A stretch of 64,000 bases of DNA from Enterobacter phage fGh-Ecl02: sequence record ON212266.1; one strand, written 5' to 3'. The position numbers and the translations under genes are program-made. How positions within the stretch are numbered: position 1 is the stretch's first letter; each line of letters starts with the position of its first letter. Shown in pieces: positions 3,607 through 46,873 of the stretch. A model generated the notes under the pieces. The model saw only the letters and a program-made list of their open reading frames with translations, made no database searches and was not told the origin of the DNA.

Positions 3607-3950
3607 ATATTACTCTCGTGTGTTGGTTAACATGACATACATATTATTTCGCGTGCATGTTTAGACCAAATAAATTAATTTTGCTGTTGAATAAAAACTG
3701 CTTTCTTGTTGAACAATAGCGTGGTATTATACGAGTTGTGAGCGTTAGCGAACAACGAGTATTTGTTTTATGAGCGAAGCGAATAGGATTAATAAAGATT
3801 ATTATCTTTAATAAAGTCCATAAATGCCGAAGGCATTTATTAATAACGCGTAGCGCAATTTGCCACTTGTTCTATAAGCAAAACACAGCGATACTAGATT
3901 GCGTCAAATATGACTTGAACCCCCCCACTATATTTTGAGGATACATACAA

Positions 3951-4619
3951 ATGCAAGAGATCACTCTCTCCGAACGCACACTTCAGTTGCTGGCTAACTT
4001 TGAGACCATCAACCCATCTATCGTCCTGACACCAGGCAAGATGCTGCGCAGCATTAACGATTCGTCTACTGTTATCGCCGTGGCACAGATCGAAGAAGAC
4101 TTCCCGTTTGAGTTCCCGATTCTGGACCTGACCAAACTTCTGGCCATCCAGCGCCTACCTTCCTTCAAAGGTGCCAAAGCCGAATTCCATCAGGACTACA
4201 TCCTGTTGAAAGGCGAAAGCTCTCAGCTGCAATTCTGGCGTTCTGCTAAAGAACTCACGGTCGTCCCGGCTGATACTATTGAACTGCCGTCTGTTGACTT
4301 TGAAGCTATCATCACTCCAGAGAAGATGAAAGAACTGACCCGCGCCTGTTCTACCCTCGGACACAAGACTGTGCGCTTGGTTGCTCAGGGTGGCAAAACT
4401 CGCCTGGTTGCAACCACCACTACCTTGGATAACTCCAACAACTACACCGTTGAGCTGGGCGAAACCGCGCTGCCGGACTTCGTAATGCCGCTGGATGTTG
4501 CCAACCTGAAAATGATCGAAGGCAACTACACTCTGCGTGCCTGTGCTGATCTACAGATGGTGAACTTCCAATCATCCGACGCGACGATCAATTACTTCGT
4601 CGGCGCACAGATTGAGTAA
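3951..4619 (+). CDS. 45: DNA polymerase sliding clamp (gp45 family)
   Basis: 222 aa, GAGGA SD, T4 gp45-like length and sequence, immediately upstream of the clamp-loader genes. Confidence 0.8.
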   Translation: MQEITLSERTLQLLANFETINPSIVLTPGKMLRSINDSSTVIAVAQIEEDFPFEFPILDLTKLLAIQRLPSFKGAKAEFHQDYILLKGESSQLQFWRSAKELTVVPADTIELPSVDFEAIITPEKMKELTRACSTLGHKTVRLVAQGGKTRLVATTTTLDNSNNYTVELGETALPDFVMPLDVANLKMIEGNYTLRACADLQMVNFQSSDATINYFVGAQIE

Positions 4620-4635
4620 TCAATCTCCAGCCTGA

Positions 4636-4644
4636 TGCTATAAT
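4636..4644 (+). promoter_or_regulatory. extended -10 promoter TGcTATAAT between genes 45 and 44
   Basis: TGnTATAAT consensus. Confidence 0.45.
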
Positions 4645-4699
4645 GTGTGGGCGGGGCGTTCCCCGCCTATTTGAAATGATTCTTCTACACGAGGCTGAA

Positions 4700-5689
4700 A
4701 TGTCTAATATCACTATCGTTTCCGACCAGTACGCATGGGAAAACAAGTACCGCCCTGACAACCTGGACGAGATTATCATCCCTCAAGACGTCCGCGCTAA
4801 AATCCATGGCTACATCACCAGCGGCAACGGCAACATCCCGTCTATGCTGTTCTACTCCCCTCAGCCTGGTACTGGCAAGACTACCTCCGCCCTGGCCGTG
4901 TGTAATGAAATCGGTTGTAAGCAACCACTGATGATCAACGCATCCCTGGACAACAGCATCGACGTTATCCGTGACCGCGTGATTCAGTATTCTACTGGTG
5001 TGAGCGTATTCGGCGGCCGCAAAGTTGTTATCCTTGACGAAGTAGAACGTCTGTCTATGGCGGCACAGGAGTCGCTGAAGGGTATTGTGGAGAAGGTCTC
5101 CAAGAACTGTTCATTCATCCTGACCACCAACGCCAAGCAACGTGTGAACGAACCTCTGCGCTCTCGTTGCCGTGAAATCGACTTTATCTGGAATGAGACC
5201 GAGGCTGATGAGGTAAAACTTCAGTTCATGCGCCGCTGTGCTGAAATCCTTCGCTGCGAAGGTGTTGAGTATGACCCTCCTGTGTTGGCTGCTATTGTCA
5301 AGCGCCATTTCCCCGATAACCGCCGCATCATGGGTGTTCTACAGGATAACGTCACCACTTACGGCAAGATCGACGAACGTGCACTGGCTGTGTTAAAATC
5401 GGCCGATATGGGCATGTTGGTGAATATGTTGAAGGATAATGACTGGGCTGGGATGAAGCAGTGGGTGACCGACAACCAGAACTATATCACTGAAGACTTC
5501 TATTCCCGCTTCTTCCAGTTCTGTGTACCACAGGATAAAGAGAAGCAAATGTTGGTTCAGAATGAGTCTATCCCTGATCTGGTATGCGTATGTGGTCAGT
5601 CTCAGATTGAACACCGTCAAGTCGGCGATGTCTGGCTGCATGCTGTGTTTTTCCTGACCAATGTCATGCTCAACATCAAGTGGAAGTGA
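4700..5689 (+). CDS. 44: clamp loader large subunit (gp44, AAA+)
   Basis: Start moved to Met20 of the track ORF (GAGG SD). ENKYRPDNLDEIIIPQD...YSPQPGTGKTTSA Walker A matches T4 gp44 (EQKYRP...HSPSPGTGKTT). Confidence 0.85.
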   Translation: MSNITIVSDQYAWENKYRPDNLDEIIIPQDVRAKIHGYITSGNGNIPSMLFYSPQPGTGKTTSALAVCNEIGCKQPLMINASLDNSIDVIRDRVIQYSTGVSVFGGRKVVILDEVERLSMAAQESLKGIVEKVSKNCSFILTTNAKQRVNEPLRSRCREIDFIWNETEADEVKLQFMRRCAEILRCEGVEYDPPVLAAIVKRHFPDNRRIMGVLQDNVTTYGKIDERALAVLKSADMGMLVNMLKDNDWAGMKQWVTDNQNYITEDFYSRFFQFCVPQDKEKQMLVQNESIPDLVCVCGQSQIEHRQVGDVWLHAVFFLTNVMLNIKWK

Positions 5690-5693
5690 TATT

Positions 5694-6116
5694 ATGGCCG
5701 CTCTTGGATTGTTCGATTACCTGGCTGCTCTGAACAGCAGCAAAGAAAACCTTTTGCGGTCTGATGACCCAGAAGTGTTGAAAGGATTCGACCCGTTTAT
5801 GACGCGGCGTGGTTTAGCTCAGAGCAAAGACACTCTAGTGGCTGCGCAACAGATGAATAAGCTACATGCTATCACTCCATGGATGCAATGGTCATATGCC
5901 TTTTACACCATTCCGGCTCGGAAACGCTACGACAAATGGTCTAAGAAAGGTCCGATTGATCCTGACGTGAAGTTACTCTCCGAGTACTTCTACATCAGCA
6001 TGGAGAAGGCATCGGAGTACGTCCGTTTCTTGCCGAAGGAAGTCCTGGCCGAAATACGCGAGAAGATGAGACGCACTGAGCTGAACGCCAAAGCGAAACC
6101 GCGCAAGGCTAAGTAG
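5694..6116 (+). CDS. 62: clamp loader small subunit (gp62-like)
   Basis: Position after gp44 and RKRYDKWSK resembling T4 gp62 RGKRYGKWAK. Start at the ATG just after the gp44 stop. Confidence 0.65.
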   Translation: MAALGLFDYLAALNSSKENLLRSDDPEVLKGFDPFMTRRGLAQSKDTLVAAQQMNKLHAITPWMQWSYAFYTIPARKRYDKWSKKGPIDPDVKLLSEYFYISMEKASEYVRFLPKEVLAEIREKMRRTELNAKAKPRKAK

Positions 6117-6145
6117 TTCAAACTATTGTAAAAGGGGAATGAGTC

Positions 6146-6610
6146 ATGGCGCGTAATACGCTAGACATATTGAATATTTCAGCAGTCAACGATGAGGCCA
6201 GCATCGTTGACTGTATGGTTGAAGTTCAATTGAACCAAGATCGGCCAGGTATATTCCTGGGGATCAAGGAAACACTGAGTCGAATTGGGGTAAACACGCG
6301 CCAAGAGCCGAATACTCTGTATCAGACTTGCCATATTCTTCATAAGTGTGGCAAGTATTATATCGTCCACTTTAAGCATCTATTTATGCTGGACGGGCAT
6401 TACAACGGATTTAACCGCGAAGATGTCCTGAGGATGAACCGAATCATCAAGCTGCTGGAGCAGTGGAACATGGTGAAGGTCATTCATCCTGAGCAGGTCA
6501 CCGAAGCCGCCGATATGTCTCGCATTAAAGTGGTTAAACACGATCAGGTTCCTGAATGGAAGCTGGTTCCAAAATACATCATCCGGCCTACGAAGGCAAA
6601 AAGCGAATAA
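6146..6610 (+). CDS. regA: RegA translational repressor
   Basis: YQTCHILHKCGKYYIVHFKHLFMLDG and C-terminal EWKLVPKYIIRP closely match T4 RegA (YQSCHILQKKGLYYIVHFKEM...EWKLVPKYTI). Confidence 0.85.
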   Translation: MARNTLDILNISAVNDEASIVDCMVEVQLNQDRPGIFLGIKETLSRIGVNTRQEPNTLYQTCHILHKCGKYYIVHFKHLFMLDGHYNGFNREDVLRMNRIIKLLEQWNMVKVIHPEQVTEAADMSRIKVVKHDQVPEWKLVPKYIIRPTKAKSE

Positions 6611-6626
6611 CTGGAGTCGCTAAATC

Positions 6627-7499
6627 ATGACAACTACATTTTCTAAGAACGTGAATCTGAATCTGGCTTTCGGTAATGCAAAGGGCGACGTCACATCGCC
6701 CGACTTTGGCAAGATCCGCAATCAGGCGAAACTGGTGCTGGAAGAAACCCGTGAACTGCTGGAAGCGGCGTATTTCGACCACGAGGTGAAAATTGAGTTC
6801 ACTGCATCTCCGCGAGTCCTGAAAGAACCCGTTGTTGTCGACATCAAAGACATTATGCGCCAGATCATGGATGCCCAGGGTGACATCACAACAGTCAACG
6901 ACGGCGTGGCTCATATTGCTGGTTTCGACGGTGACGAATGCCTACAGCGCGTGTATGCCTCTAACATGAGCAAGTTCATTCGTAATGAAGGTGAAGTTGT
7001 GCCTGCACTGGATTACTACTACAACAAAGGCTTCCCACGCGAAAGTCTACGCATCGAAGGGGAATTCCCTCAGGCGTGCATCAAAGTGGTAGACACCATC
7101 ACCGTCGACGGCAAAGAATACCCGGCTGGCAAGTTCCTGAAGAACATGGCAACCTTCAAAGAGCCTGACTTCTCTGATATGTTGACCGCCGAGCCTAAGC
7201 GCCAGATCACCGAAATCATTCTGACAGGTACGGCTACCCCAGGTCGACTCGGATGCAACGAACATGCTGGTGTTGCCTACGCGCCGTTCGATTTTATTGA
7301 CGAGATCGTGGGATACACCAAGATGGGCTTCCAGGCGTTCTCTGGCGAAACAGTCGAGAGCTACATTCCTGTGTTTGTTTTCAATGAAGATAACTTTCCA
7401 ACTCTACCGTTGATCTGGGGTGAATGGAAAGCCAACGTCCGTATCTATGTGGCCAGCCCAGTGCAATCATCTATAACCCAACTGACCCGTATCGATTAA
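6627..7499 (+). CDS. hypothetical protein (possible MazG/HisE-like all-alpha NTP-pyrophosphatase N-terminal region)
   Basis: 290 aa, GGAG SD. N-terminal helical region with a KLVLEETRELLEAA...D...E pattern, assignment weak. Confidence 0.45.
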   Translation: MTTTFSKNVNLNLAFGNAKGDVTSPDFGKIRNQAKLVLEETRELLEAAYFDHEVKIEFTASPRVLKEPVVVDIKDIMRQIMDAQGDITTVNDGVAHIAGFDGDECLQRVYASNMSKFIRNEGEVVPALDYYYNKGFPRESLRIEGEFPQACIKVVDTITVDGKEYPAGKFLKNMATFKEPDFSDMLTAEPKRQITEIILTGTATPGRLGCNEHAGVAYAPFDFIDEIVGYTKMGFQAFSGETVESYIPVFVFNEDNFPTLPLIWGEWKANVRIYVASPVQSSITQLTRID

Positions 7500-7523
7500 G
7501 ATATACGGTTATTCACTAAACAA

Positions 7524-7550
7524 CAGAGGCTATAATGGCCTCTGTTTTCG
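7524..7550 (+). terminator. intrinsic terminator cagaggc-TATAATG-gcctctg + TTTTCG
   Basis: 7-bp GC stem + T-run. Confidence 0.7.
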
Positions 7551-7567
7551 TATTCTAAGAGGATACC

Positions 7568-8791
7568 ATGAAAGATAAACCATATGACATCCCATATTGC
7601 GGTGTCCGTGAAACCAAAATCAAATCAGCCCATCCTATGTTAAGTTCATTCCACCGCCAGCTGGCATATGAATGGATGAGGGATCGTTATGCGATACATG
7701 TCAAGAAGGACGTGCAATGTCTTCCAGCGCCATGGACGGATAATCCGGTATTACGCCAAGTCAAGTTTTGTAACGTGCGGAGAGAGCACGATAGACAGTC
7801 TCGAAATTTGATCAATAATATCATCCTCAATCAGGATCTCACGCTATCTGACAAAATGTTCAACTGTGTATTGTTCCGCATGTACAACATGTGGGAACCT
7901 ATACAGGCTTTGGGTGGTCCATGGACGATCGAAGAATTCGGAAACATAAATCTTGAATGGTGTCGAAATGTTCTTCAGGAATTCGAATCTAAAGGTGGCA
8001 AAGTTTTCACCAATGCGTTTAATACAGGCGGTCTGAAACAATGCCTGGCTTTCCCCGAACTAGTTGTCAACCACAAGGAGCAGTGCTTCGGTGGGATGAT
8101 GGTGAATCTGATCTGTAAAGACGGTTCAACCCAGAACATGGATTACAAGAAAGCCAAGGCCATCGCTGAAGCAGAGCCGGACTTCTACACCATCGAAGGT
8201 TGGGAACCGTACATGCCAATGCGTGTCATCCGCTCCCTGAAGGCATTCGTCAACAAACACCCTCATTACTTTGATCGCCTCAGGGAATTTAGCCGTCCCG
8301 ACTCTGTTTACCAGGCGATGTATGACGACATTGAGGGGCTTGGACCATTCTTGGCATACCAGATTTGGGTTGATTTTACGTACATCGATGAATATCCATT
8401 CAGTGAAAACCACTTCACTATCGCTGGTCCCGGTTGCCGTGCTGGTATCGATCTGTTATTTTTGGACAAGGACGGCATGACGCATGAAGAATGCATATTC
8501 TGGGTTCGTGATCATCAAGATCAATTGTTCGCTCAGTATGGGTATAAACGTAATGAATTTTGGTCGGCAGAAGAACCGGAAGATCGTTGCATGAATGTTA
8601 TGCAGCTGGAGAACATGTTCTGTGAACTTCAGAAATATACCCGCTGCGTTGAGGCGGTGATGCGCGGGGAGAAACCTCGAGGAAAGGTGGGGTATGACGG
8701 GAATGGCAGTGCGTATAAGCAACGTTGTGATGAAGTCGTGCTCAAACGTGGTTCCGTCAATTTGCTGGACCGTTTGAAGAAACCTGAATAA
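7568..8791 (+). CDS. hypothetical protein (407 aa; candidate DNA base-modification enzyme)
   Basis: AGAGGA SD, preceded by a terminator. No confident motif. Sits where T4 has gene 43. Confidence 0.5.
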   Translation: MKDKPYDIPYCGVRETKIKSAHPMLSSFHRQLAYEWMRDRYAIHVKKDVQCLPAPWTDNPVLRQVKFCNVRREHDRQSRNLINNIILNQDLTLSDKMFNCVLFRMYNMWEPIQALGGPWTIEEFGNINLEWCRNVLQEFESKGGKVFTNAFNTGGLKQCLAFPELVVNHKEQCFGGMMVNLICKDGSTQNMDYKKAKAIAEAEPDFYTIEGWEPYMPMRVIRSLKAFVNKHPHYFDRLREFSRPDSVYQAMYDDIEGLGPFLAYQIWVDFTYIDEYPFSENHFTIAGPGCRAGIDLLFLDKDGMTHEECIFWVRDHQDQLFAQYGYKRNEFWSAEEPEDRCMNVMQLENMFCELQKYTRCVEAVMRGEKPRGKVGYDGNGSAYKQRCDEVVLKRGSVNLLDRLKKPE

Positions 8792-8905
8792 AGATTCCCT
8801 TTACTTCGTTCTTCAATAACTCAATCCAGCGTATATTAACCTCACTTAAACGAAGCGCCCTGACAAACGGGGCGCACATTTGAACTGAAACAGGAAGACT
8901 ACATC

Positions 8906-10924
8906 ATGTCAGAATTTAAGCCCTTCGCAGTAGCTGTCAACAATAACGTGCTGGCCATGTCAGCAACTGGTCTGTTCATGACCAACATCGATAAAGATGC
9001 TCTGTGGGATCTGTATCTGTCTTCTTTCCCTGCTGGCACTAACCCGCTTTATCGTGAGCGTACCGAGCACGACTGTACCTGCTGTAAACAATTCATCCGT
9101 AATATCGGCGGTGTGGTCACCATCGACTCCGACCTGAACGTGATCTCTATCTGGGATAACATTCAGCTGGGTAACGAATACGACGTTGTCGCTTCGGCGC
9201 TGTCAGCGTATGTTAAGCAGCACGCAATCGTCGACGTGTACTTCAACGACACCAAGAAAGTTGGTGTTGAGTCGAATCACGAAATGAAAGACGGTATTGT
9301 CCGCACCTACAACCACTTCCACACCGACCTGCTGGGCAGCTATGTTCTGCGGGCAGATACCATCGCTTCTAAGAAGGGTGAAATCCGCCAGGCGATTGAA
9401 GTGTTTGAGCGCGGCCTGCGTGAACTGTCTCTGGAATCGGCTGAAATCGTTCTTGAATTGATTGACCAGAATTCTCTGTATCGCGGTGAAGAGCACAAAG
9501 CGGCAGTGCAGGCGTTCGTGGTGAACAAGACCCTGTACGAACAAACTGCAGAAGAGAAACGCGCTCTGTGGGCTTGGCGCACTGGCTACCGTGCAAACGG
9601 TCATACCCCTCACGGCATTCGTAATACCGTGATTGGCTCTCTGCTGGTAGACCTCAATGAAGGTCGTGATCTGGAAACCGCCGTGAAGTCCTTTGAAGCC
9701 AAAGTCGCTCCGACGAACTACAAGCGCCCAACCGCGCTGGTCACGAAGTCCATGATTGAAAACGCGCAGAAAGAAGTCGAAGCGCTGGGTCTGACCGATT
9801 CACTGGGTCGCCGTTATGCCGTGTATGACGATCTGACCATCAACAACGTTCTGTTCGCCGATCTGGCAGTTCAGAAGAAGATGGACCCGTTTGCTCAGCT
9901 GGCGTCTGAAGTGAAGACTCCGACCAAGTCCCTGGACAAGGTTGAAGAGATCACGATCGACGACTTCCTGACCAACGTGTTGCCAAAGGCGCATTCCCTG
10001 GAAGTACTGGTCGAAAACTCTCACATTGGCAACCTGATGTCCCTGATCGCTCCGGCTACCGCAGGCGCTCCTAACCTGTTCAAGTGGAACAACGGCTTCA
10101 GCTGGTCGTACAATGGCGAAGTGGCCGACTCCATCAAAGAGCGCGTGAAGACCGCAGGCGGTAATGTCGACAGTTTCCTCCGTGTGTCACTGGCTTGGCA
10201 TAACAACGACGACCTGGATCTGAGCATGAACGATCCTCTTCACAACCACGTATATTTTCGCAACCGTCGTTCGTCAACTGGCGCAACTCTGGACATCGAT
10301 ATGAACGGTATGGATGGGATTGATCCAAACCGCCGTCCGGTGGAGAACATCTTCTTCAGCGATGAACGCAAGCTGCGTGACGGGAATTATGAGTTCTATG
10401 TCACCAACTTCAACAAGCGTGAAACCTGTGACGTTGGTTTCGAAATCGAAGTTGAATACAAAGGCCAGACTAAGCGCTTCTCACACCCTGGCCTGGGTAA
10501 CAAAGATCGCACGTTGGCTGTTGTGGTTCAGGTTCGCGCTGGTCAGGTGGTCAACATCAGTTCTACCCTGAAAGACGACGCTCGCTCTCAGGAAATCTGG
10601 GGCATCAAGACCTCCGTCTTCCAGAAGGTACAGCTGGTTCTGAACTCACCAAACCATTGGGACGGCGAGCAGACTGGCAACAAGCACGTGTTCTTCATCC
10701 TGGAAGGTTGCGCCAACCCTGTCGGCACCCGTGGTTTCTATAACGAATATCTGAAGCCGGAACTTGATAAACACCGCAAGGTTTTTGAAATGTTAGGTGG
10801 TAAGATTAAAGTACAGCCAAGCACTGAGCAGCTGTCCGGTCTGGGCTTCTCTACCACCCAACGCAACCACGTGTTCGTGAAGGTGAGCGGCTCTTTCAAC
10901 CGCACTGTGAAAGTTGTGTTCTAA
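8906..10924 (+). CDS. hypothetical large protein (672 aa) with N-terminal HDCTCC cysteine cluster
   Basis: AGGAAG SD. No P-loop and no polymerase or ligase motifs found. Confidence 0.5.
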   Translation: MSEFKPFAVAVNNNVLAMSATGLFMTNIDKDALWDLYLSSFPAGTNPLYRERTEHDCTCCKQFIRNIGGVVTIDSDLNVISIWDNIQLGNEYDVVASALSAYVKQHAIVDVYFNDTKKVGVESNHEMKDGIVRTYNHFHTDLLGSYVLRADTIASKKGEIRQAIEVFERGLRELSLESAEIVLELIDQNSLYRGEEHKAAVQAFVVNKTLYEQTAEEKRALWAWRTGYRANGHTPHGIRNTVIGSLLVDLNEGRDLETAVKSFEAKVAPTNYKRPTALVTKSMIENAQKEVEALGLTDSLGRRYAVYDDLTINNVLFADLAVQKKMDPFAQLASEVKTPTKSLDKVEEITIDDFLTNVLPKAHSLEVLVENSHIGNLMSLIAPATAGAPNLFKWNNGFSWSYNGEVADSIKERVKTAGGNVDSFLRVSLAWHNNDDLDLSMNDPLHNHVYFRNRRSSTGATLDIDMNGMDGIDPNRRPVENIFFSDERKLRDGNYEFYVTNFNKRETCDVGFEIEVEYKGQTKRFSHPGLGNKDRTLAVVVQVRAGQVVNISSTLKDDARSQEIWGIKTSVFQKVQLVLNSPNHWDGEQTGNKHVFFILEGCANPVGTRGFYNEYLKPELDKHRKVFEMLGGKIKVQPSTEQLSGLGFSTTQRNHVFVKVSGSFNRTVKVVF

Positions 10925-10968
10925 ACCTGATTTGAAATTGTGACCCATTCATCATTGAGGATAGTAAA

Positions 10969-11340
10969 ATGTTTGATAAAGCAACCCGTATGAAACTGCG
11001 CTTCGAGTCTAACAAAGGCCTGTTGTCTGTTGAGCAGGTCTGGGACCTGAGCCTGACTGCCCTGAACGAAATGGCGAAAGGTCTGAGCCGCCAGGTGAAA
11101 GCAGCAGAAACCGATGAAGAAGATTTCATTGGCACCAAAAGTAACGTTGACTCCGAACTGCAGCTGCGCTTCGACGTTGTCAAGCACATCATCGGCGTTA
11201 AGCTGAAAGAACGTGACGACAGCAGAGACGCGGCAGAGCGTAAGGCGAACAACCAGATTATCCTGGAGCTGATCCAGCGTAAGAAACAGCAAGAGCTGGA
11301 AAGCAAATCTGTTGAAGAACTGGAAGCGCTGCTGAAATAA
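10969..11340 (+). CDS. hypothetical charged/coiled-coil protein
   Basis: 123 aa, K/E-rich, followed by a strong intrinsic terminator. Confidence 0.5.
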   Translation: MFDKATRMKLRFESNKGLLSVEQVWDLSLTALNEMAKGLSRQVKAAETDEEDFIGTKSNVDSELQLRFDVVKHIIGVKLKERDDSRDAAERKANNQIILELIQRKKQQELESKSVEELEALLK

Positions 11341-11362
11341 CCCTGTTGGCCTCGGCCTGAGC

Positions 11363-11390
11363 AACCCCGCCATGTGCGGGGTTTCTTTTG
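11363..11390 (+). terminator. intrinsic terminator
   Basis: aaccccgc-catgt-gcggggtt + tcttttg. Confidence 0.75.
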
Positions 11391-11400
11391 GACAAAGAAT

Positions 11401-11811: not shown

Positions 11812-12088
11812 GAATCTAACTCAGGCGCTCACCAACTGCAACCGTCTCAACTATTGCAACGACCCATTGCAAAAGCTGAAGTCCCTGGTAGAATCAGAAC
11901 TGGCTAAACTGGCCGAATACAACGCCATCCAAGAAGACGTGGTGTTCATGTCGGACACGGTCGTAGACACCCTTCCGCGCGAAGTGTACAATGTATTGGG
12001 TCGCATCGCAAAGGTGGGTTTCCGTGAACCACAAGACGCCAAACCCACCCCCGAAATTCTTACATCCATCGTTGACTCGTTTAAGTGA
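11783..12088 (+). CDS. hypothetical protein
   Basis: 101 aa (MSKEIQ...), overlaps the end of the upstream gene. Confidence 0.4.
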   Translation: MSKEIQEAFENLTQALTNCNRLNYCNDPLQKLKSLVESELAKLAEYNAIQEDVVFMSDTVVDTLPREVYNVLGRIAKVGFREPQDAKPTPEILTSIVDSFK

Positions 12089-12095
12089 GACCACC

Positions 12096-12797: not shown

Positions 12798-12798
12798 T

Positions 12799-15168: not shown

Positions 15169-15194
15169 CGGGCGGGGCAACCCGCCTTTCTTTG
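15169..15194 (+). terminator. intrinsic terminator after the vWA gene
   Basis: ggcggg-gcaa-cccgcc + tttcttt. Confidence 0.65.
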
Positions 15195-19809: not shown

Positions 19810-19865
19810 TCAATAACCTCGGGCGGCTTATCATAAAGCTGCCCTTTCATTTGAGTGACTATATC

Positions 19866-31354: not shown

Positions 31355-31382
31355 AAGGGGGCTGACGCTCCCTTTTGGTTTC
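31355..31382 (+). terminator. intrinsic terminator
   Basis: gggggc-tgac-gctccc + ttttggtt. Confidence 0.65.
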
Positions 31383-34794: not shown

Positions 34795-34843
34795 GAGGTT
34801 GCACTAGACGACGCCAGGGCGAAAGAACTTGGTCTGTAACTGG

Positions 34844-34875
34844 ATCCCCCTAAATACAGGGGGATTTCTTTTTCT
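34844..34875 (+). terminator. intrinsic terminator after the late 189-aa gene
   Basis: atccccc-taaataca-gggggat + ttctttttc. Confidence 0.8.
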
Positions 34876-38834: not shown

Positions 38835-38838
38835 CTCA

Positions 38839-38864
38839 AAGGCCGGAAACGGCCTTTTCTTTAT
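38839..38864 (+). terminator. intrinsic terminator after the endolysin
   Basis: aaggccg-gaaa-cggcctt + ttctttat. Confidence 0.8.
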
Positions 38865-38936
38865 CCAATCCTCAGGTATGCTGGGGTTGTCACCTTAATT
38901 AGAGGTGATGACACCCTGAGATATAGGAAGGTTCCC

Positions 38937-39779
38937 ATGCAATCTGCCACCAAAGTTGTAAGTAAGAAGCCAGCGGGTAAGACCAAGTCAGCACGTAAGA
39001 AGGAGACAATCCAGAAAGAAGATGACTGGATGAAGTTCTCTAAAGGTGACTTCAGAATCGCTCCGTTCAATGGCCTCTCAGAAAATCAGAACCTCGCATA
39101 TCAATCTGCTCTTGTAGAAAACCTCACCATCGCAATCGGTCCGGCAGGCACGGGTAAATCGTACTGTGGTGCCTCAGCTGCCGCCAAGCTCCTGATCGAT
39201 AAAGTGGTCAGTAAGATCGTCATCACGCGCTCTCCGCTGCCGACAGGCCAGACTGCAGGCTTCCGCCCTGGCGACACATACGAAAAGCTGATGCCATATC
39301 TGATGCCCCTGATTCAGACGCTGAAGAAGGTGCTGAAGACTGACACAGGTAGCGACGGTTTCTTCAACTATCTGTGGGAGAAGCGGATCATTGAGATCCA
39401 GGATCTGGAGACCATCAAGGGGATGACCTTTGACGACACCTTCCTGATCATTGAAGAAGCACAGGAATGTGATATGGAGCAGCTGAAGAACCTACTGACC
39501 CGCGCATCTGACTCGACTTACATCTTCGTCAACGGTGACATCAAACAGTCCAACAAGCGCCTGCGCGACAGCGCCCTTGAAAAGTACGTCAGTTCCTTCC
39601 GCGACTTCAACGCCAAGCTGGAGGCCGGAACCCTGAAGATCGATGGTGTTGGCGTCGGTGATGAGTACCCTGAATGGGTTCAGCCGTTCAGCATCATCGA
39701 GTTCGACAAGTCTGACCGCAACGGGCGCGGCGACTTCACCCGCCTGATGCTGGAAGTCAACGATCTGTACGACATTTAA
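38937..39779 (+). CDS. phoH: PhoH-like ATPase
   Basis: GPAGTGKSY Walker A, VITRSP, FLIIEEAQ, VNGDIKQSN motifs. Confidence 0.8.
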   Translation: MQSATKVVSKKPAGKTKSARKKETIQKEDDWMKFSKGDFRIAPFNGLSENQNLAYQSALVENLTIAIGPAGTGKSYCGASAAAKLLIDKVVSKIVITRSPLPTGQTAGFRPGDTYEKLMPYLMPLIQTLKKVLKTDTGSDGFFNYLWEKRIIEIQDLETIKGMTFDDTFLIIEEAQECDMEQLKNLLTRASDSTYIFVNGDIKQSNKRLRDSALEKYVSSFRDFNAKLEAGTLKIDGVGVGDEYPEWVQPFSIIEFDKSDRNGRGDFTRLMLEVNDLYDI

Positions 39780-39862
39780 GTAACTCGCCAACCCTCCCCG
39801 CCGCCTTCAATCTACGAGGGCGGCGTATAATAAAACCTGCGTAAACAAACCCGAGGAACACC

Positions 39863-42145
39863 ATGATTAACGTTATAAAACGTGACGGATCTTCTGTCCC
39901 ATTTGATATTGAGAAACTACACGCAGTCGTAGACCGCGCCTGTGATGGCCTGTCTGGTGTGTCAATGTCAGAGGTGATCGCTGCATCGAAGATTCAGTTC
40001 ACCGACAACATGAGAACAGATCGCATTCAGGATATCCTCATCCAGGCTGCGGCTTCACTGATCTCTGTAGACAAACCCAATTACCAGTATGTGGCTGCTC
40101 GTCTGAAGTCGTATGATCTGCGCAAGGCTGTCTACGGTCAGTACAAGCCGCCTCACCTGCTGGACATCTTCGTCAAGAACATCAAACAGCGCGTGTATGA
40201 TCGTGAGTTCCTTGATCTCTACACGACCGAAGAGTTCAACGAGCTGAACGATGTCATCAATCACAAACGCGATAAGAACTTCACGTGGGCGGCCATGGGT
40301 CAGCTGACTGAGAAGTACCTGTTGCGCGACCGTTCCAAGAAAGACAGCAAGATCTTCTACGAAACCCCTCAGGTCATGTACATGGGCATCGCCATGGCGT
40401 TGTTCTCTAACTGGGACAAAGCCAGCCGCCTGGAGATGGTGAAAAAGTTCTATGAATATGCCAGCACAGGCAAGTTCAGTCTTCCCACCCCGATTATGGC
40501 AGGTGTTCGTACTCCTACCCGTCAGTTCAGTTCCTGTGTGTTAATCAAGACTGATGACACCCTGAACTCTATCAACGCAACAGCCAAGACCATCGTTGAC
40601 TATGTGTCCAAACGTGCGGGTATCGGCTTCGATGTCGGGGCAATCCGTGGGATTGGTAGTCCTATTCGCGGCGGAGAGATGGTTCACACAGGCCTGATCC
40701 CGTTCATCAAGTATCTCACTGGGGCACTCAAATCGTGCTCTCAGGGCGGCATTCGTGGTGGTGCAGCAACAGCGTACATCCCTCTGTGGCATTACCAGTT
40801 CGATGACGTCGTTGTTCTGAAGAACAACCGTGGTACTGAAGAAAACCGCGAACGCCGTATCGACTATGGCATTCAGATCAACCGCGTGATGTTTGAGCGC
40901 CTGGTTGCCAAGCAGCCTCTGTATCTGTTCGACCCGAAAGACAACCGCGAAATGTATGAAGCATACTTCGCTGACGTTGACAAGTTCCGTACTCTGTATG
41001 AGAACATGATCAAGGCCGCCGATGCCGGTTTGGTTCGTGCTAAGAAGTTACAGGCAGAAGAGGTGTTCCAGATGCTGTTAGACCAGCGTTCAGACACAGG
41101 CCGCATCTACATCGCATTTGTCGATCACATGAATGAATACAGTCCATTCAACCTAGACACGATTTATTCTTCAAATCTTTGTTTAGAAATCGCCCTGCCG
41201 ACCCGTGAGTTTGAGCAGTACAACGATGAAAACGGGCGCGTGGCTCTGTGCACCCTGGCTTCCTTCAACCTGACGGCGTTCGAAGATCCTACGGAAATGG
41301 AAGACGTGGCGTTCGTGTTGGTGTCTGCGCTGGACATGCTGTTGGAATATCAGGACTATCCAGCGATTCAGGCTCGCAAGGCTGTTGAAGACTATCGTCC
41401 TCTGGGTGTTGGTATCGTGAATGTGGCTCACTTCCTGGCCAAGAACTTCACGGGCTATGGCTCACCAGCTGGTCTTGAAATGCTGGATGCGTGGATGGCA
41501 CACCTGCACTTCTATCTGGTCAAGGCATCCAACCGTCTGGCTATGAAGTTCGGGGCTTGCAAACGCGGAACCATCCACAATAATGGGCAGGTCACCGCCG
41601 ATCTTCAGCCGCTTCCACTTGATATCCTACCAAATGGTAAGAAGCCGGAAGGGATGGCATACGGGCTGGATTGGGATGGGTTGAAGGATAATCTGAAGAC
41701 CTATGGTATCCGCAACGCTACTCTGCTGGCAGTAGCCCCTACCGAAAGCTCCTCACAGGTCCTCAACGCAACGAACGGCATTGAGCCACCGAAGGGCTTG
41801 GTGAGCATCAAGGGTAGCAAGGACGGCACTTATAAGCAGGTCGTCCCGGACGTTGAGACCCTTGGACCGATGTATGACCTCAAGTGGGACCTGGACTGTA
41901 TTGAGTACCTGAAGACCGCTGCTGTAATCCAGCGCTGGGTTGACCAGTCCATCAGTACCAACACTTGGTATGACCCAGAGAAGTACCCTGACAGCAAGAT
42001 CCCTCGCGCCAAGATGATGCAGGATATCCTGTCGTTCTATATGTGGGGTGGCAAGACTCTGTATTACAACACAAACAAGGACGCCAAGGAAGACGAAGAG
42101 CTGAAGCAGGCTGAGGAAACTCAGTGCGATAGCTGTGTTGTATAA
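39863..42145 (+). CDS. nrdA: ribonucleotide reductase class Ia alpha subunit
   Basis: ATP-cone VIKRDGSSVPFDIEKL, catalytic NLCLEIALP and C-terminal Cys pair. 760 aa. Confidence 0.9.
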   Translation: MINVIKRDGSSVPFDIEKLHAVVDRACDGLSGVSMSEVIAASKIQFTDNMRTDRIQDILIQAAASLISVDKPNYQYVAARLKSYDLRKAVYGQYKPPHLLDIFVKNIKQRVYDREFLDLYTTEEFNELNDVINHKRDKNFTWAAMGQLTEKYLLRDRSKKDSKIFYETPQVMYMGIAMALFSNWDKASRLEMVKKFYEYASTGKFSLPTPIMAGVRTPTRQFSSCVLIKTDDTLNSINATAKTIVDYVSKRAGIGFDVGAIRGIGSPIRGGEMVHTGLIPFIKYLTGALKSCSQGGIRGGAATAYIPLWHYQFDDVVVLKNNRGTEENRERRIDYGIQINRVMFERLVAKQPLYLFDPKDNREMYEAYFADVDKFRTLYENMIKAADAGLVRAKKLQAEEVFQMLLDQRSDTGRIYIAFVDHMNEYSPFNLDTIYSSNLCLEIALPTREFEQYNDENGRVALCTLASFNLTAFEDPTEMEDVAFVLVSALDMLLEYQDYPAIQARKAVEDYRPLGVGIVNVAHFLAKNFTGYGSPAGLEMLDAWMAHLHFYLVKASNRLAMKFGACKRGTIHNNGQVTADLQPLPLDILPNGKKPEGMAYGLDWDGLKDNLKTYGIRNATLLAVAPTESSSQVLNATNGIEPPKGLVSIKGSKDGTYKQVVPDVETLGPMYDLKWDLDCIEYLKTAAVIQRWVDQSISTNTWYDPEKYPDSKIPRAKMMQDILSFYMWGGKTLYYNTNKDAKEDEELKQAEETQCDSCVV

Positions 42146-42215
42146 ATTGGTCTAAACCTACTACCGTTATATCATCAGGGGTGAGAGATCACCCCTTATT
42201 AATCAGGAAAGAAAC

Positions 42216-43319
42216 ATGAGCGAACAGAAACAATTCTCCGTATTCGACCCAAGCTCGGACAACACTGGTCTACCGTTCTTCGGTGACCCAGTGAGCATTC
42301 AGCGTTACGATGTCGTGGCCTGGCCATTCGTACAGAAGTGGTATGAGAAAGGTCTCAGTCAGTTCTGGCGTCCTGAAGAGGTGGACATCACCAAGGACAA
42401 GGCAGACTTCTCTACTCTGAACGAAGCAGAGAAACACGTCTACTTCAGCAACCTGAAGCGCCAGACCATGCTGGACTCTATCCAGGGTGCGGCTCCGTTC
42501 GAGGCGTTTGGTCCATGGGCGTCTACCCCTGAAATGCAGTTTGCTGTCCTTGAATGGACGCGCCAGGAAGCCATTCACTCTTTATCGTACACCCACATTT
42601 TGCGCAACACTGTGAACGATCCAGGTATCGTGTTTGACCACGTACTGGATGTTGTGGAGATCGTGGACTGTGCTCACCAGATCAGTGTGTACTACGATGA
42701 CATGGTACAGTACAGTGGCATGCGTATGGCCGGACGCATCTTCACCCGAGAAGATCTGATGAATGCCAAACGCGCATTCTGGCGTGCTCTGTTTGCTGCC
42801 AACACACTAGAAGGCATCCGCTTCTACGTGTCCTTTGCATGCTCTTGGGCATTCACACAGTTCCAGAAGAAGATGGAAGGCAATGCCAAAATCATTCGAC
42901 AGATCGCCCGTGATGAGCAGGATCACCTGATCCTGACCCAGACGCTGCTAAACCGCCTGCCTGGTATGGACCCCGACTTTGCAATCATCCGTGAGGAACT
43001 GCGTGGTGAGATGACCCAGATGTTCCTGGACGTGGTTCATCAGGAGAAGGAGTGGGCGAACTACCTATTCAAAGACGGTTCCATCCTGGGGCTGAACGCC
43101 AAGATCCTTCATCAGATGGTAGACTGGCTGGCAACCCACCGAATGGGCGCTATCGGGCATCCATATCCCGGTGAACCTCGCAAGGAGAACCCAGTCCCAT
43201 GGATTAATGACTGGCTAGATAATAAGGCAATGCAGTACGCGTTGCAGGAAGCGGAAGCTCCTGATTATCTGATGGGTGTACTGACTGGTTCGGTATCCGA
43301 TGGCCTCAAATTCGCTTAA
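42216..43319 (+). CDS. nrdB: ribonucleotide reductase beta subunit
   Basis: Ferritin-like di-iron motifs (EAIHSLSYTHIL, QDEQDHL) at standard spacing. 367 aa. Confidence 0.85.
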   Translation: MSEQKQFSVFDPSSDNTGLPFFGDPVSIQRYDVVAWPFVQKWYEKGLSQFWRPEEVDITKDKADFSTLNEAEKHVYFSNLKRQTMLDSIQGAAPFEAFGPWASTPEMQFAVLEWTRQEAIHSLSYTHILRNTVNDPGIVFDHVLDVVEIVDCAHQISVYYDDMVQYSGMRMAGRIFTREDLMNAKRAFWRALFAANTLEGIRFYVSFACSWAFTQFQKKMEGNAKIIRQIARDEQDHLILTQTLLNRLPGMDPDFAIIREELRGEMTQMFLDVVHQEKEWANYLFKDGSILGLNAKILHQMVDWLATHRMGAIGHPYPGEPRKENPVPWINDWLDNKAMQYALQEAEAPDYLMGVLTGSVSDGLKFA

Positions 43320-43328
43320 AGGTGAGAA

Positions 43329-43553
43329 ATGATTACGATCTATTCCAAACAAGGTTGCGCTCAGTGTGTAACAGCCGAAAATCTGTGCAAAATGAAAGGG
43401 CTGGAACACAAGATCCTCAAGCTGGACAAAGATTACCGGCTGGAAGAACTTCAGCAGTTGACGGGTAAGCCGCGCGTGTCGATGCCTGTAATCGTCCTCG
43501 CTGACCAGACCGTGACCGACGTTAATGGACTCGCCGCCAGCCTTAAACGCTGA
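43329..43553 (+). CDS. nrdC: glutaredoxin/thioredoxin-like protein (NrdC-like)
   Basis: 74 aa, IYSKQGCAQCV CxxC active site, immediately after nrdAB. Confidence 0.55.
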   Translation: MITIYSKQGCAQCVTAENLCKMKGLEHKILKLDKDYRLEELQQLTGKPRVSMPVIVLADQTVTDVNGLAASLKR

Positions 43554-43579
43554 CAAGCCAAAGCCCCTCAATGAGGGGC

Positions 43580-43608
43580 TTTACTTCTATAATCCCTGCG
43601 CTTATACT
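43580..43608 (+). promoter_or_regulatory. early promoter TTTACT-N17-TATACT fused to the nrdC terminator hairpin
   Basis: Same architecture as 30939. Confidence 0.6.
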
Positions 43609-43658
43609 TCCCAGTAATTCATTGGCATTCGCCACAAATTGAAAGCGGGAACTATATC

Positions 43659-44120
43659 ATGACAAACAAAGTACTCACCAACCCACTGCACAACTTCGGT
43701 TACATTCAACTCCCTCTGGTGATCGACACCCTGTACGCCGACGACAAAGAAGAGATCTGCTGGTCACCCACCGCACTGATTGAACGCGAAATCTTCAAGT
43801 CTGTTGTTGATGTCATGTTCCGTATCGGTCGCAATGGACCTCTGGTCTACCTCGGCAAGGTGACTGAGTTGAAGACAAGCCACAACGAACGCTTCCTTCG
43901 TATCGATACAACGGGGTGTTCTCATCAGGACTTCAACACATTGCGCAATTATGTTCTGGTCAACCGCCCGGTCAGTCAACACCGCCCGTATCTGACTTCA
44001 ATGCACATCGACAATTTCATCACCGACGTGCACCTCCGCGCCGAAACCCTCCATGAAGAGGAAACAGGCCGAGCTATCGACACAGTCTTAAATATGGTTG
44101 TGATCACCCTGGCGGAGTAG
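43659..44120 (+). CDS. hypothetical protein
   Basis: 153 aa. Terminator + TTTACT-N17-TATACT promoter + GGGAACTATATCATG start. Confidence 0.45.
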   Translation: MTNKVLTNPLHNFGYIQLPLVIDTLYADDKEEICWSPTALIEREIFKSVVDVMFRIGRNGPLVYLGKVTELKTSHNERFLRIDTTGCSHQDFNTLRNYVLVNRPVSQHRPYLTSMHIDNFITDVHLRAETLHEEETGRAIDTVLNMVVITLAE

Positions 44121-44125
44121 TCCTC

Positions 44126-44476
44126 ATGCAAGATTACAAAGAGTTGAGAATGCAGCTGGCAGTCCCCATACCAGACAAAGGTTTATACCAGAACCTGCAT
44201 CATCTGATGTCTGAAGGGCATATGCTGCCCTTGCGGTCTGAGGATGGATCTCAGATCGGTTATGCCACCAGTTGCGTGGTCTACGACAAACCAGGAGACG
44301 AAGAGCGCGGAAAGGTCAGTGTGGGTTCCAGATTTGTGTTGAACAAGAAGCTGGAGGGATCAGTGGTTGACGTCAGGCCGATGATTATCCTCTACCAATT
44401 CAACGGCAAAGAAATGTTCAGGTTATTGAGCCACTTCATGTTAGTCGTGGCTCCGGCATTCAGGACGAAATTCTAA
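44126..44476 (+). CDS. hypothetical protein
   Basis: 116 aa. Confidence 0.4.
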   Translation: MQDYKELRMQLAVPIPDKGLYQNLHHLMSEGHMLPLRSEDGSQIGYATSCVVYDKPGDEERGKVSVGSRFVLNKKLEGSVVDVRPMIILYQFNGKEMFRLLSHFMLVVAPAFRTKF

Positions 44477-44853
44477 TTCGTCCTTTTCAACCACACGGTG
44501 TCTGTTATTGGATCTGGATTGTTGACCACATAGAATGTGATGGTAACGCCCAGAGAATGGTAATCCTCTGACAGACTCACCGTGACTTCTTCTACCTCTG
44601 CTCTGGGTTCATACAAGGCGATAGCGTCCTCTACTTTGTTCTTCACATCTACCTGGATAGTCGGTGTCGTGTTTTCACCCAGCAGCCCATAAAGCCCCGC
44701 GCCGATCCCAGGATAAGTGGGCCAGTCCCCGACTGAAGACATGACGATATTCCGCACGGATTGTAAGACAGCATACACACCTGATTTCATGGTGACATCT
44801 TTGGTCACCGGATGCATGCCGAACTTCAGATCGACATCTTTATACTCTTTCAT
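44473..44853 (-). CDS. 25: baseplate wedge protein gp25-like (GPW/gp25 family)
   Basis: YEPRAEVEEVTV and VVNNPDPI match T4 gp25 YEPRIDKLAVNV and VIDNPDDI. 126 aa. Confidence 0.65.
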   Translation of the reverse strand: MKEYKDVDLKFGMHPVTKDVTMKSGVYAVLQSVRNIVMSSVGDWPTYPGIGAGLYGLLGENTTPTIQVDVKNKVEDAIALYEPRAEVEEVTVSLSEDYHSLGVTITFYVVNNPDPITDTVWLKRTN

Positions 44854-44926
44854 TTCGCGATCCTCTCAGGATGCCTATAAGGAGCAGAGAGACGTGCTGT
44901 CCCTCTGCCACTAAACTTATACCAAC

Positions 44927-46537
44927 TTACTCTTTGGTGCCGAAATTACCACCATTGTCTTTTAATTCTGCCTTGATGTCAATCTCACCCGGACCCGTAG
45001 GGGATGCAGGGGTTGCACCTGACAGAGAAGAAGCGCGACCAGCACCTTCGGCATATATGATGTTACCATTGATCGTCTGAGCGACAGTCAGTTTGTCAGC
45101 GATGATCTCAGTCGTTAGAATCTTAGGAACCTTCAATGTCCCGCCGACCTCCAGAGTCTCGCAGATAATGCGCAGAATATTCTGCGCTTGCATTTCCGCT
45201 AGGTCACTGAATTTCATCAGCGCTGTGCCCGCAACCACATTTGAGTAATTGTTGGAATGCAAATGATAGACCTCACCTGTCTTGCGCTGAACTTCAGTTC
45301 CTTTGACCGTCAGGTTGTGGTCCCCGCCGACATAATAACGCTTGTTGAACATCGTCAGGTCATAGTGGTCTTTGACGGACTTGTTGACCACATCACCATC
45401 CGGCAACATTTGCTTGTAAGACCCAGACTTATGCATCCAGTGAAGACGTTCACCGCCAGGGGTGTCATCCACTTCCATAATATGCCCAGCTCGGGACACC
45501 ATGACGTTATTGTACGGGTATTTGGAGCCACCCGCAGCCGGAACCATGGTTTCTCCAGTGTTGTCAATATCCTGTACTCGCCCAGTAGGAGCCGGAGTCG
45601 GTTGTTCCTTTGGAGTACGATCTGGGATAGGTTCTGACCATTTACCATTCTGCTGCGCAGGCGCGGCTGTGGCTGTGTTAGCAGGACCAGGCCAACGATA
45701 TCCCAAGACCGAAGAACGTCTGAAACGACTGACCTTCACTGAATCGGATTGGTTACCACCAATACACCAGACATAGTTTGCATCGAACTTCTGCACAAAC
45801 GCTACGTGTCCAAATGTGGGGTTGTTACCACGCCGGAAGACTACGATAGCGCCATATTGTGGTGCTGACAGTGGAGTGCCCCATGTAAGGTAAGATCGGG
45901 CAAGAGCGGAGCGCGTAGACGTGTATCCAGCCTGTATCATAACCCAACCCACGAACGCCGCACACCACGACACTTCATCTTCAGAAGCACCAAGGGAGGT
46001 TGTCTTGTGATATTCTATAATGCGCGGGTTGTTGTTGAACTTTCCGGCATACTCCTTGATACCCAATTCACCACGAGCGATTGTCATCCACTTCTCTGGA
46101 TCATACCCACCAACAGGTGGTTGTGGATCTGGTTGTGGTTCGTCTTCTTGTTTCACAGGAACGTCGGTGACGGCGTTGTACGCCTGACGTTCCACAGATT
46201 GAACGACCTGCCCGAGGGCCAGTGGGTTTGTGTCGGCACCATCAGTAGGACTTGAACCAGTCCAAGTCCAGGTGATGCGTAAATTCTGGTATGCTTCGTC
46301 AAGGGCGAACCCCATAACCTCAGTACCAGGAATGATACCCGTTGGAGACCAACCTAAACCAGCAGAGGAGGCGTTTGAAGCAGGCATCAGTACCTTCGCC
46401 CATGGGAGTTTGTCCGTAGGCAGGAGGACGGGATCGTCGGTGTGTACGCCATATATGCGGACGGCGACGCGCCCGTTTTGGTCTGGATCGTTGACATCTT
46501 CAACGGTGCCGTAAAACCATCTCATATTGTCTAACAT
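44927..46537 (-). CDS. 5: baseplate hub/central spike protein gp5-like with CHAP-type peptidoglycan hydrolase domain
   Basis: N-terminal WFYGTVEDVNDPDQNGRVAVRIYGVHTDDP...LPWAKVLMPASNASSAGLG matches the T4 gp5 OB domain. Central SWCAAFVGW...GHVAFV Cys/His pair is CHAP-like. C-terminal beta-helix-like segment. Confidence 0.7.
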   Translation of the reverse strand: MLDNMRWFYGTVEDVNDPDQNGRVAVRIYGVHTDDPVLLPTDKLPWAKVLMPASNASSAGLGWSPTGIIPGTEVMGFALDEAYQNLRITWTWTGSSPTDGADTNPLALGQVVQSVERQAYNAVTDVPVKQEDEPQPDPQPPVGGYDPEKWMTIARGELGIKEYAGKFNNNPRIIEYHKTTSLGASEDEVSWCAAFVGWVMIQAGYTSTRSALARSYLTWGTPLSAPQYGAIVVFRRGNNPTFGHVAFVQKFDANYVWCIGGNQSDSVKVSRFRRSSVLGYRWPGPANTATAAPAQQNGKWSEPIPDRTPKEQPTPAPTGRVQDIDNTGETMVPAAGGSKYPYNNVMVSRAGHIMEVDDTPGGERLHWMHKSGSYKQMLPDGDVVNKSVKDHYDLTMFNKRYYVGGDHNLTVKGTEVQRKTGEVYHLHSNNYSNVVAGTALMKFSDLAEMQAQNILRIICETLEVGGTLKVPKILTTEIIADKLTVAQTINGNIIYAEGAGRASSLSGATPASPTGPGEIDIKAELKDNGGNFGTKE

Positions 46538-46873
46538 ATTGAGTTCCGGTTGTCAAACAAGGATTTGAAGGTATTTATGCGCAGCTGATTTTGCCTTATA
46601 TACTATAGGAAGCTCTGCTTCCGTTCATTTTATTTGTTTTATTCGATCCTATTCGCTTCGCTCATCAAACCGCCCTATGCGGGCAGCACCATTCCAATGC
46701 CATGGAGGCATAAGGGCGAGGCAATAACTGTACACCCCAGAACACTCCTTGAAAAATGGTATTTTACTGACAATCTGATTCAAAATAAACAAACACCAAC
46801 AAATGACTCGGGAACAAGCCCATTATAGCAATTTCAGGTAAAGAAAGTTCGTGTTAACCGATTTTACAGTTAA

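Follow-up and report, generated by a model that had tools for sequence, protein, structure and literature searches.

A conserved inverted 20-nt repeat of Enterobacter phage fGh-Ecl02 is probably an RNA hairpin of paralogous structured elements in Ackermannviridae

We analysed a 64,000-nucleotide (nt) stretch of DNA from Enterobacter phage fGh-Ecl02 (sequence record ON212266.1), here called the window, with the focus on a 20-nt segment repeated in two of its non-coding regions. Region 1 (r1) precedes the sliding-clamp gene gp45 and region 2 (r2) precedes the baseplate hub/lysozyme gene gp5 (Table 1). Both regions matched phages of the Ackermannviridae, with Escherichia phage AV101 being the closest relative (97-99% identity), followed by Ag3, SKML-39 and the LIMEstone-like Dickeya phages, and more distantly by Kuttervirus and Taipeivirus phages. 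The first-pass annotation of this DNA had placed the repeat in the two largest regions free of open reading frames (ORFs). The AV101 annotation confirmed this, as no other intergenic gap in the stretch matching the window is as large as r1 and r2 (342 bp and 363 bp).

The 20-mer ATGAGCGAAGCGAATAGGAT was found at 3770-3789 on the plus strand and its exact reverse complement ATCCTATTCGCTTCGCTCAT at 46646-46665, 42.9 kb apart, as first reported. These were the only two matches in the window with up to three mismatches, one per strand, and none of 100 shuffled sequences gave any match. The complete AV101 genome (157 kb) also contained only two copies, even when five mismatches were allowed, so the whole-genome search for further copies that had been suggested yielded none there. 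A chance origin of the 20-mer was ruled out by the shuffles together with the AV101 count. Of two further core copies that had been counted in region 1, one (gagcgaagcgaa) is internal to the 20-mer, leaving a single extra copy, gagcgttagcgaa (equal to GAGCGTTAGCGAA), at 3740-3752. A scan of viral contigs with a 14-mer returned chance matches only, and the loose regular expression GAG[CT]-loop-[GA]CGA was too permissive for use.

An 11-nt direct match next to the repeat had been reported as well. The 11-mer TATTTGTTTTA is present on the plus strand at both sites, with 3760-3789 reading tatttgtttt-ATGAGCGAAGCGAATAGGAT and 46631-46665 reading tatttgtttta-ttcg-ATCCTATTCGCTTCGCTCAT. However, it is weak evidence because the final A of the site 1 copy is the first base of the 20-mer, which leaves an independent common flank of 10 nt, because mononucleotide-shuffled 40-nt flanks shared at least 10 nt in 39 of 5000 trials, and because the 11-mer was not conserved in LIMEstone1 or other genera. 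The position of the site 2 copy is not homologous to that of the site 1 copy. Pairing between the r1 and r2 RNAs through the 11-mer is possible in the lineage of the window; it was rejected, being neither conserved nor compensated elsewhere.

With local BLAST we identified a third intergenic locus (r3) in AV101 at 153,746-154,110, flanked by gp6 and by a gene whose function is not known. This locus, which lies outside the window, joins a 52-nt stretch resembling r2 to a 28-nt stretch resembling r1. All three loci were kept in 270-277 Ackermannviridae phage records at approximately 70-99% identity, most of them without an annotated ORF there, and in five genera the elements have stayed in place. 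Two coding explanations were rejected. The only ORF of at least 50 codons, at 46634-46828, is broken in relatives by one- and two-base indels, and the tiny ORFs starting from the ATG of the 20-mer (13 and 8 codons) have no ribosome-binding site, with the ATG changed to ACG in other genera.

The 20-mer was found to consist of a 15-nt hairpin, designated X', and five flanking bases. X' has the form A-Y-G-A-G-C / loop / G-C-G-A-R-U, with two Watson-Crick pairs, a tandem G·A/A·G and two G:C pairs. In r1 the hairpin was found by RNAalifold; pair 43:55 is C:G in six sequences and U:A in four, and none of the 10 sequences departs from G·A and A·G in the tandem cells. For the X' of r2 and r3 (helix 4), 15 sequences have C:G at pair 61:88 and 4 have U:A. 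U:A as the Y:R pair is confined to the window and LIMEstone-like phages, and the others have C:G. The loop varied (GAA, GUA, AUA, AAC, AAA or UUCA), and in Kuttervirus r3 it is replaced by an additional helix, GAGGG...CCCUC; in the r3 of AV101, too, an additional helix takes its place. A kink-turn or K-loop was rejected, as the tandem G·A has Watson-Crick pairs on both sides and no bulge. When the r1 RNA of the window was folded as a single sequence (3733-3786, plus strand), the 11-mer linker UAUUUGUUUU competed with the X' hairpin by pairing with its 3' half (GAAGCGAAUA), and this pairing was not conserved in other genera.

X' is combined with other modules in each locus. Thus r1 consists of a hairpin Y' and X', r2 of a pseudoknot, a helix P2 and X', and r3 of Y', pseudoknot, P2 and X'. 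Y' uses the C-GA-G / C-GA-G motif twice with a GUUGU/ACAAC helix between them. Its inner pair 13:18 is C:G in seven sequences and U:A in three, pair 9:22 is U·G in eight and U:A in two, and all four G·A cells are invariant. Stem S1 of the H-type pseudoknot is AUGCC/GGCAT in r2 and CAGCC/GGCTG in r3, and in 10 of 20 sequences both partners of pairs 9:23 and 10:22 are replaced. Pair 17:29 of stem S2 is A:U in 14 and C:G in 6, and all pseudoknot cells are paired. In Taipeivirus S2 is changed from CCAU/AUGG to CCCU/AGGG, an A:U to C:G switch seen in r2 and r3 together. The pairs of P2 also vary: 33:52 (G·U in 11, A:U in 9), 35:50 (U·G in 18, C:G in 2), 38:48 (C:G in 17, U:A in 3) and 40:46 (U:A in 13, C:G in 5, U·G in 2).

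Across the 20 distinct r2/r3 sequences, standard pairs were formed in 99.5% of 380 pair cells and six pairs changed on both sides. The covariation score for r2/r3 was 0.302 as compared to 0.134 after shuffling (none of 500 shuffles reached 0.302), and it was at most 0.053 when the partners were slid. The covariation counts overstate the number of independent events, because of the relatedness of the sequences and of exchange between the paralogues. The r1 RNA (3733-3848) folded with -32.8 kcal/mol (z = -5.32), none of 200 shuffles being equally stable, and the r2 stretch 46596-46815 gave a z of -2.28.

The fold also indicated which strand is folded. The sense strand was defined as the direction of the gene downstream of each locus. 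In r2/r3, the 99.5% of pairs formed in the sense strand compares with 91.6% in the opposite strand, and in r1 the values were 100% and 93.8%. The G·U pairs of P2 alternate with A:U, C:G or U:A (33:52, 35:50, 40:46) and become A·C mismatches in the complementary strand, where C·T would stand in place of the invariant G·A pairs. Since only one strand accommodates the G·U and G·A pairs, the folded strand is the plus strand at site 1 and the minus strand at site 2. The 20-mer appears inverted because each copy follows the direction of gp45 or gp5, and these two genes lie on opposite strands.

Next we compared the paralogous loci within genomes. The longest exact word shared between r1 and r2 in the Agtrevirus-like lineage of the window was the 20 nt of X'. 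In Limestonevirus r1 and r2 shared 17 nt in X', and r1 and r3 shared 19 nt in Y'. Kuttervirus had 20 nt shared by r2 and r3 over pseudoknot and P2, and Taipeivirus 28 nt shared by r1 and r3 in X'. The distant Miltonvirus phage Kevin repeats the pattern with its own, different segment, 29 nt of X' that are identical in r1 and r2 and have different flanks. In AV101, r3 has 95% identity to Kuttervirus phages and only about 80% to Agtrevirus relatives, and the genome is therefore mosaic in this part. A P2 patch of about 20 nt within this r3 nevertheless resembles the phage's own r2 (19 of 20 bases; window 46669-46687) and not the Kuttervirus version, and it has the appearance of short-patch gene conversion across a distance of about 90 kb. 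The pattern among paralogues would fit short-patch gene conversion, selection for matched copies, or both. From the recombination idea of the first-pass annotation, such patchy concerted evolution is what stood, and a large-scale inversion was not supported.

Two variants of these loci were also observed. In Serratia phage Kevin r2 has no pseudoknot and no P2, and it contains two tandem-G·A hairpins behind an upstream sequence resembling that of r1 (GTTGAATAAAAAC...); as the family evolved, its loci have therefore exchanged or lost modules. In the IMG/VR contig 3300045988_107072, a near-identical metagenomic relative, 19 bp of the A+T-rich palindrome of r1 (window 3790-3816) are duplicated in tandem, and the same length polymorphism of r1 is found among isolates (approximately 1018 as compared to 999 bp).

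The elements were compared with known families. Rfam 15 gave no match in the window at gathering thresholds, and at E ≤ 10 gave only sub-threshold matches, which lay over the terminator hairpins. No transfer RNA or transfer-messenger RNA was found with ARAGORN. A covariance model of the r2/r3 module scored r2 with 97.5 bits, r3 with 84.9 bits and the X' of r1 with 22.7 bits, and it found nothing else below E = 1 in the window and AV101 (157 kb). When bacterial genomes were scanned, at least 120 loci with an exact 18-base match to the pseudoknot core were found; none of the 100 that were scored with the model exceeded 26.6 bits, in comparison to 85-97 bits for true members. The genome papers of Ag3 and LIMEstone1 list promoters and terminators from pattern matching only. 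Our literature search found no transcriptome or small RNA work on Ackermannviridae and no paper describing the elements. With neither an Rfam match nor a paper, the family is apparently undescribed.

Putative promoters and transcript ends were predicted in r1 and r2 (Table 1). The r1 promoter candidate resembles recurring sites in the window of the form TTTACT-N17-TATnnT. In Taipeivirus r1 the sequence equivalent to 3790-3845 is different and the hairpin is still formed. In the putative -10 element of r2 TTATA is invariant and TGn is present in four of five genus representatives, and about 95 less conserved bases lie between this element and the pseudoknot. The hairpin at the possible end of r2 covaries, being GGAUGC...GCAUCC in Taipeivirus. 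Late promoters have been predicted for gp5 and gp6 in Ag3. Since the late promoter of gp5 lies downstream of the r2 element, late messenger RNA (mRNA) of gp5 is expected to lack X'. With regard to the promoter and Rho-independent terminator expected of Hfq-type trans-acting small RNAs, a conserved -10 element and a strong hairpin are present in r1; the U-tracts of r2 and r3 are poor.

Table 1. Features of regions r1 and r2 in the window (promoters and transcript ends are predictions).
Feature	Position	Strand	Description
Region 1 (r1)	3607-3950		Between minus-strand gene 3235-3606 (function not known) and sliding-clamp gene gp45 (3951-4619)
Putative r1 promoter	3702-3730	+	TTTCTT-N17-TATTAT; invariant or nearly so across genera
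Y' hairpin	3731-3760	+	ACGAGUUGUGAGC GUUA GCGAACAACGAGU; holds the extra core copy 3740-3752
11-mer, site 1	3760-3770	+	TATTTGTTTTA; linker between Y' and X' in r1; lineage-specific
X', site 1	3770-3784	+	AUGAGC GAA GCGAAU; pairs A:U, U:A, G·A, A·G, G:C, C:G; loop GAA
3' flank of X', site 1	3785-3789	+	AGGAU
A+T-rich imperfect palindrome	3790-3816	+	Directly after X' in r1
Hairpin	3820-3840	+	AUAAAUGCC GAA GGCAUUUAU; likely 3' end of r1 transcript (element to 3845)
Separate promoter-like site ahead of gp45	3867-3895	+	TTGTTC-N17-GATACT
Region 2 (r2)	46538-46900		Between gp5 (baseplate hub/lysozyme, minus strand, 44927-46537) and 49-codon ORF plus gp26
T4-type late promoter for gp5	46572-46579	-	CATAAATA; LIMEstone1 annotation
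Hairpin	46608-46622	-	GGAAGC AGA GCUUCC; 3' of X' across an A-rich linker; possible end of r2 transcript
11-mer, site 2	46631-46641	+	Folded (minus) strand reads UAAAACAAAUA; within the A-rich linker between X' and hairpin
X', site 2	46665-46651	-	Flank 46650-46646; within covariance-model alignment of r2 (97.5 bits)
Helix P2 of r2	46669-46687	-	GCUGCCC GCAUA GGGCGGU; 7 bp, two G·U pairs
H-type pseudoknot of r2	46689-46711	-	S1 AUGCC/GGCAU; S2 loop CCAU with AUGG four nucleotides downstream
Putative extended -10 of r2	46822-46830	-	TGC TATAAT
Terminator of operon upstream of r2	46902-46883	-	

On this evidence the 20-mer is probably a conserved RNA hairpin of paralogous structured non-coding elements that lie upstream of gp45, gp5 and gp6 in all enterobacterial Ackermannviridae sampled. 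The r1 element (approximately 3702-3845, plus strand) lies ahead of gp45, the r2 element (approximately 46830-46600, minus strand) ahead of gp5 and the r3 element ahead of gp6. We infer the following for transcription, transcript ends, protein partner and function. Each locus would be transcribed as a separate short unit, from a sigma-70-like promoter to a terminal hairpin, immediately before the promoter of the downstream gene and in the same reading direction as the gene. X' and Y' would be recognised on RNA by a single shared partner, probably a protein of the phage or the host, as suggested by a G·A stem that is invariant while the loop is free and even replaceable by a helix. An antisense seed was also considered. 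No further site complementary to the 20-mer with up to five mismatches was found in AV101, the conserved bases are almost all in helices and the loops are free, which points away from a seed and towards recognition of a shaped hairpin. We have moderate confidence in recognition of the hairpins by a common partner as their function. The paralogues may be kept matched by selection, by short-patch gene conversion, or by both. Still more tentatively, the three loci could encode paralogous small RNAs that bind one factor, couple the expression of gp45, gp5 and gp6 or replication, and are matched by intragenomic gene conversion; this fuller scheme is possible, although we would not call it likely. 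The first-pass proposal of paired sites for a regulatory protein survives in an altered form: if there is a binding site, it would be a hairpin of RNA (or of a single strand) that the three paralogous elements have in common, and not an operator in duplex DNA.

Several observations weigh against an RNA hairpin that is made from short transcripts. G·T and G·A pairs form in single-stranded DNA too, and a DNA hairpin, for example at an origin, would fit. The sequences come from few clades, and the covariation may partly reflect shared ancestry or gene conversion between the paralogues. The promoters, the transcript ends and transcription itself in r1 and r2 are predictions from sequence. The predicted -35 elements are weak, and the poor U-tracts after the r2 and r3 hairpins make real terminators doubtful. 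The start predicted for r1, near 3737, leaves the outer half of Y' untranscribed. The proteins neighbouring the loci were checked as candidate partners; they have no known domains, and no candidate was identified among them.

Some known RNAs and motifs resemble the elements in part. The small stable RNAs of T4 (species 1 and 2), CsrB and 6S RNA are likewise small, structured and non-coding, with repeated hairpins recognised by proteins. However, there is no homology to these RNAs, the elements here have one to three hairpin copies per RNA, and a GGA motif is not conserved. X' contains GCGAAGC, and X' and Y' have 5'-(C/U)GAG-3' opposite 5'-CGA(G/A)-3' as in tandem G·A loops; tandem G·A in the C-GA-G context is thermodynamically favourable. 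The GCGAAGC mini-hairpin and tandem G·A loops are structural motifs and not functional families, and the loop of X' is not fixed as GAA. The pseudoknot of the T4 gene 32 leader is, similarly to that of r2 and r3, a small H-type pseudoknot in a non-coding region of a T4-related phage, followed by an unstructured A/U-rich stretch. Its location differs, as r2 and r3 are upstream of gp5 and gp6, and the sequences are dissimilar. The r2/r3 element is also not in the leader of the late mRNA, since the late promoters lie downstream of it.

As an alternative, the three loci could be replication origins of the T4 oriF, oriG and oriE type, at which a transcript from a promoter is held as an R-loop in an A+T-rich element and primes the leading strand. 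The hairpins would then arise either in the transcript or in the DNA strand that it displaces, and such origins can coexist with RNA elements. X' includes the GCGAAGC mini-hairpin, an unusually stable DNA hairpin that is found in some phage origins. An A+T-rich stretch of 20-30 nt directly follows X' in all three loci, which also have predicted promoters, an arrangement that fits a small RNA gene equally well. The small T4 ORF repEA is located in the gene 5 region. For the T4 origins the literature describes a promoter with a downstream A+T-rich unwinding element, no common motif and a tendency to lie at switches of transcription direction, and puts oriE near repEA. The T4 origins and the loci here are alike in having a promoter (predicted in our loci) and an A+T-rich stretch, in being intergenic, in their nearness to replication or baseplate genes and in their position at direction switches (r1 and r3 lie between divergent genes, and r2 adjoins gp5). 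The T4 literature also gives R-loop formation as independent of specific sequence and the T4 origins as needing no specific RNA structure, which leaves the covarying pseudoknot and the hairpins conserved in our loci unexplained. Moreover, the GC skew of the window merely follows gene orientation, with no origin signal, and no iterons of fixed spacing are present. Altogether we consider that origins are an unlikely explanation of the repeat.

The elements could also be sites of processive antitermination, of the lambda nutL/nutR or HK022 putL/putR type, where a hairpin made just after the promoter binds a factor or RNA polymerase itself and allows read-through into gp45, gp5 or gp6. The near-identical hairpin shared by lambda nutL and nutR is found in inverted orientation. 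The nut and put sites and the elements here are alike in being short hairpin sequences, in occurring in more than one copy per genome and in opposite orientations, and in lying between a promoter (predicted in our loci) and a terminator-like hairpin, and the hairpin here would likewise be read as RNA by one common factor; in our loci the copies are oriented along transcription and precede a gene cluster. The 40-kb plus-strand cluster that starts at gp45 after r1 contains at least seven strong co-directional hairpins of terminator type, so this cluster is split into many small units or needs read-through, and the concerted evolution of the copies would fit a single shared factor. No sequence or structural similarity to nut or put was seen, however, no boxA-like sequence was noticed by eye, with no formal search run, and no N-like protein has been identified, with no search aimed at one. 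BoxB is recognised through its GNRA-like loop, whereas X' has a free loop and a tandem G·A stem. The downstream genes also have promoters of their own, namely late promoters for gp5 and gp6, TTGTTC-N17-GATACT for gp45 and TTTACT-N17-TATnnT inside the cluster, and read-through is therefore not obviously needed. We regard antitermination as quite unlikely.

A site in duplex DNA, either an operator for a phage protein or a T4-like middle promoter on the opposite strand, appears improbable. The motif does lie in regulatory intergenic DNA, and in LIMEstone1 the complementary strand of the r1 X' is annotated as a 'putative middle promoter' with a CTT box and TAATAC, an annotation that was made by pattern matching to the T4 consensus. 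The distance from the CTT box to AATACT, however, varies between 10 nt (Kuttervirus) and 15 nt (Taipeivirus), with values of 13 nt for the window and 14 nt for LIMEstone1. MotA-dependent middle promoters of T4 have a fixed spacing of about 12 nt between the activator box and the sigma-70 -10 element. At r2 a promoter in this orientation would face no gene. Compensatory changes, strand-specific G·U pairs and a loop that tolerates an inserted helix are also not predicted by a site in duplex DNA. In addition, TTGGTC-N17-TAATAT at 3641-3669 on the minus strand, inside the invariant block TGTTTAGACCAA, is a better candidate promoter for the minus-strand gene (3606-3235) than the LIMEstone1 middle promoter over X'.

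That the copies are crossover sites for a 43-kb inversion, or relics of homing or mobile elements, would agree with an exact inverted repeat at this distance, with the many homing endonucleases of these phages and with the exchange of short patches between paralogues, but it is extremely improbable, as the elements hold the same places in five genera, the 204 annotated features of AV101 include no integrase, invertase or resolvase (annotation only, with no profile search of all proteins), in agreement with the recombinase absence noted at first pass, and r1 and r2 are collinear, on the same strand as each other, in all 15 distinct phages listed in both searches, with no deposited isomer.

Ackermannviridae phages (ViI, CBA120, Ag3 and LIMEstone-like) are widely used in biocontrol and typing, and what is known of their gene regulation comes only from pattern matching with T4. 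Testable content can now be assigned to the largest non-coding regions of these genomes, a conserved RNA-like fold that includes a pseudoknot and recurs in three loci. If transcribed, the elements would be a new family of phage RNA and would clearly exemplify how RNA modules evolve in concert inside a viral genome, and if they are origins instead, they would be the first origin candidates for Ackermannviridae. The case also illustrates that a striking inverted 20-mer can be oriented copies of an RNA hairpin and not a recombination site.

Some further features were observed in the window. The motif TTTACT-N17-TAT(T/A/C)(A/C)T recurs intergenically on the plus strand (15573, 17834, 30939, 37265, 43580 and 62580), often right after a terminator hairpin, and it may be the main early or middle promoter class of the phage. 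Terminator-like hairpins were located on the plus strand at 7522-7546, 11363-11383, 15170-15187, 19821-19844, 31355-31374, 34842-34867 and 38838-38857. The 49-codon ORF between r2 and gp26 (46901-47050, minus strand) matched phrog_9633, a family of unknown function, and weakly also phrog_634, a 'baseplate hub assembly catalyst' family (E = 4e-4), and its product may be a gp51-like assembly factor.

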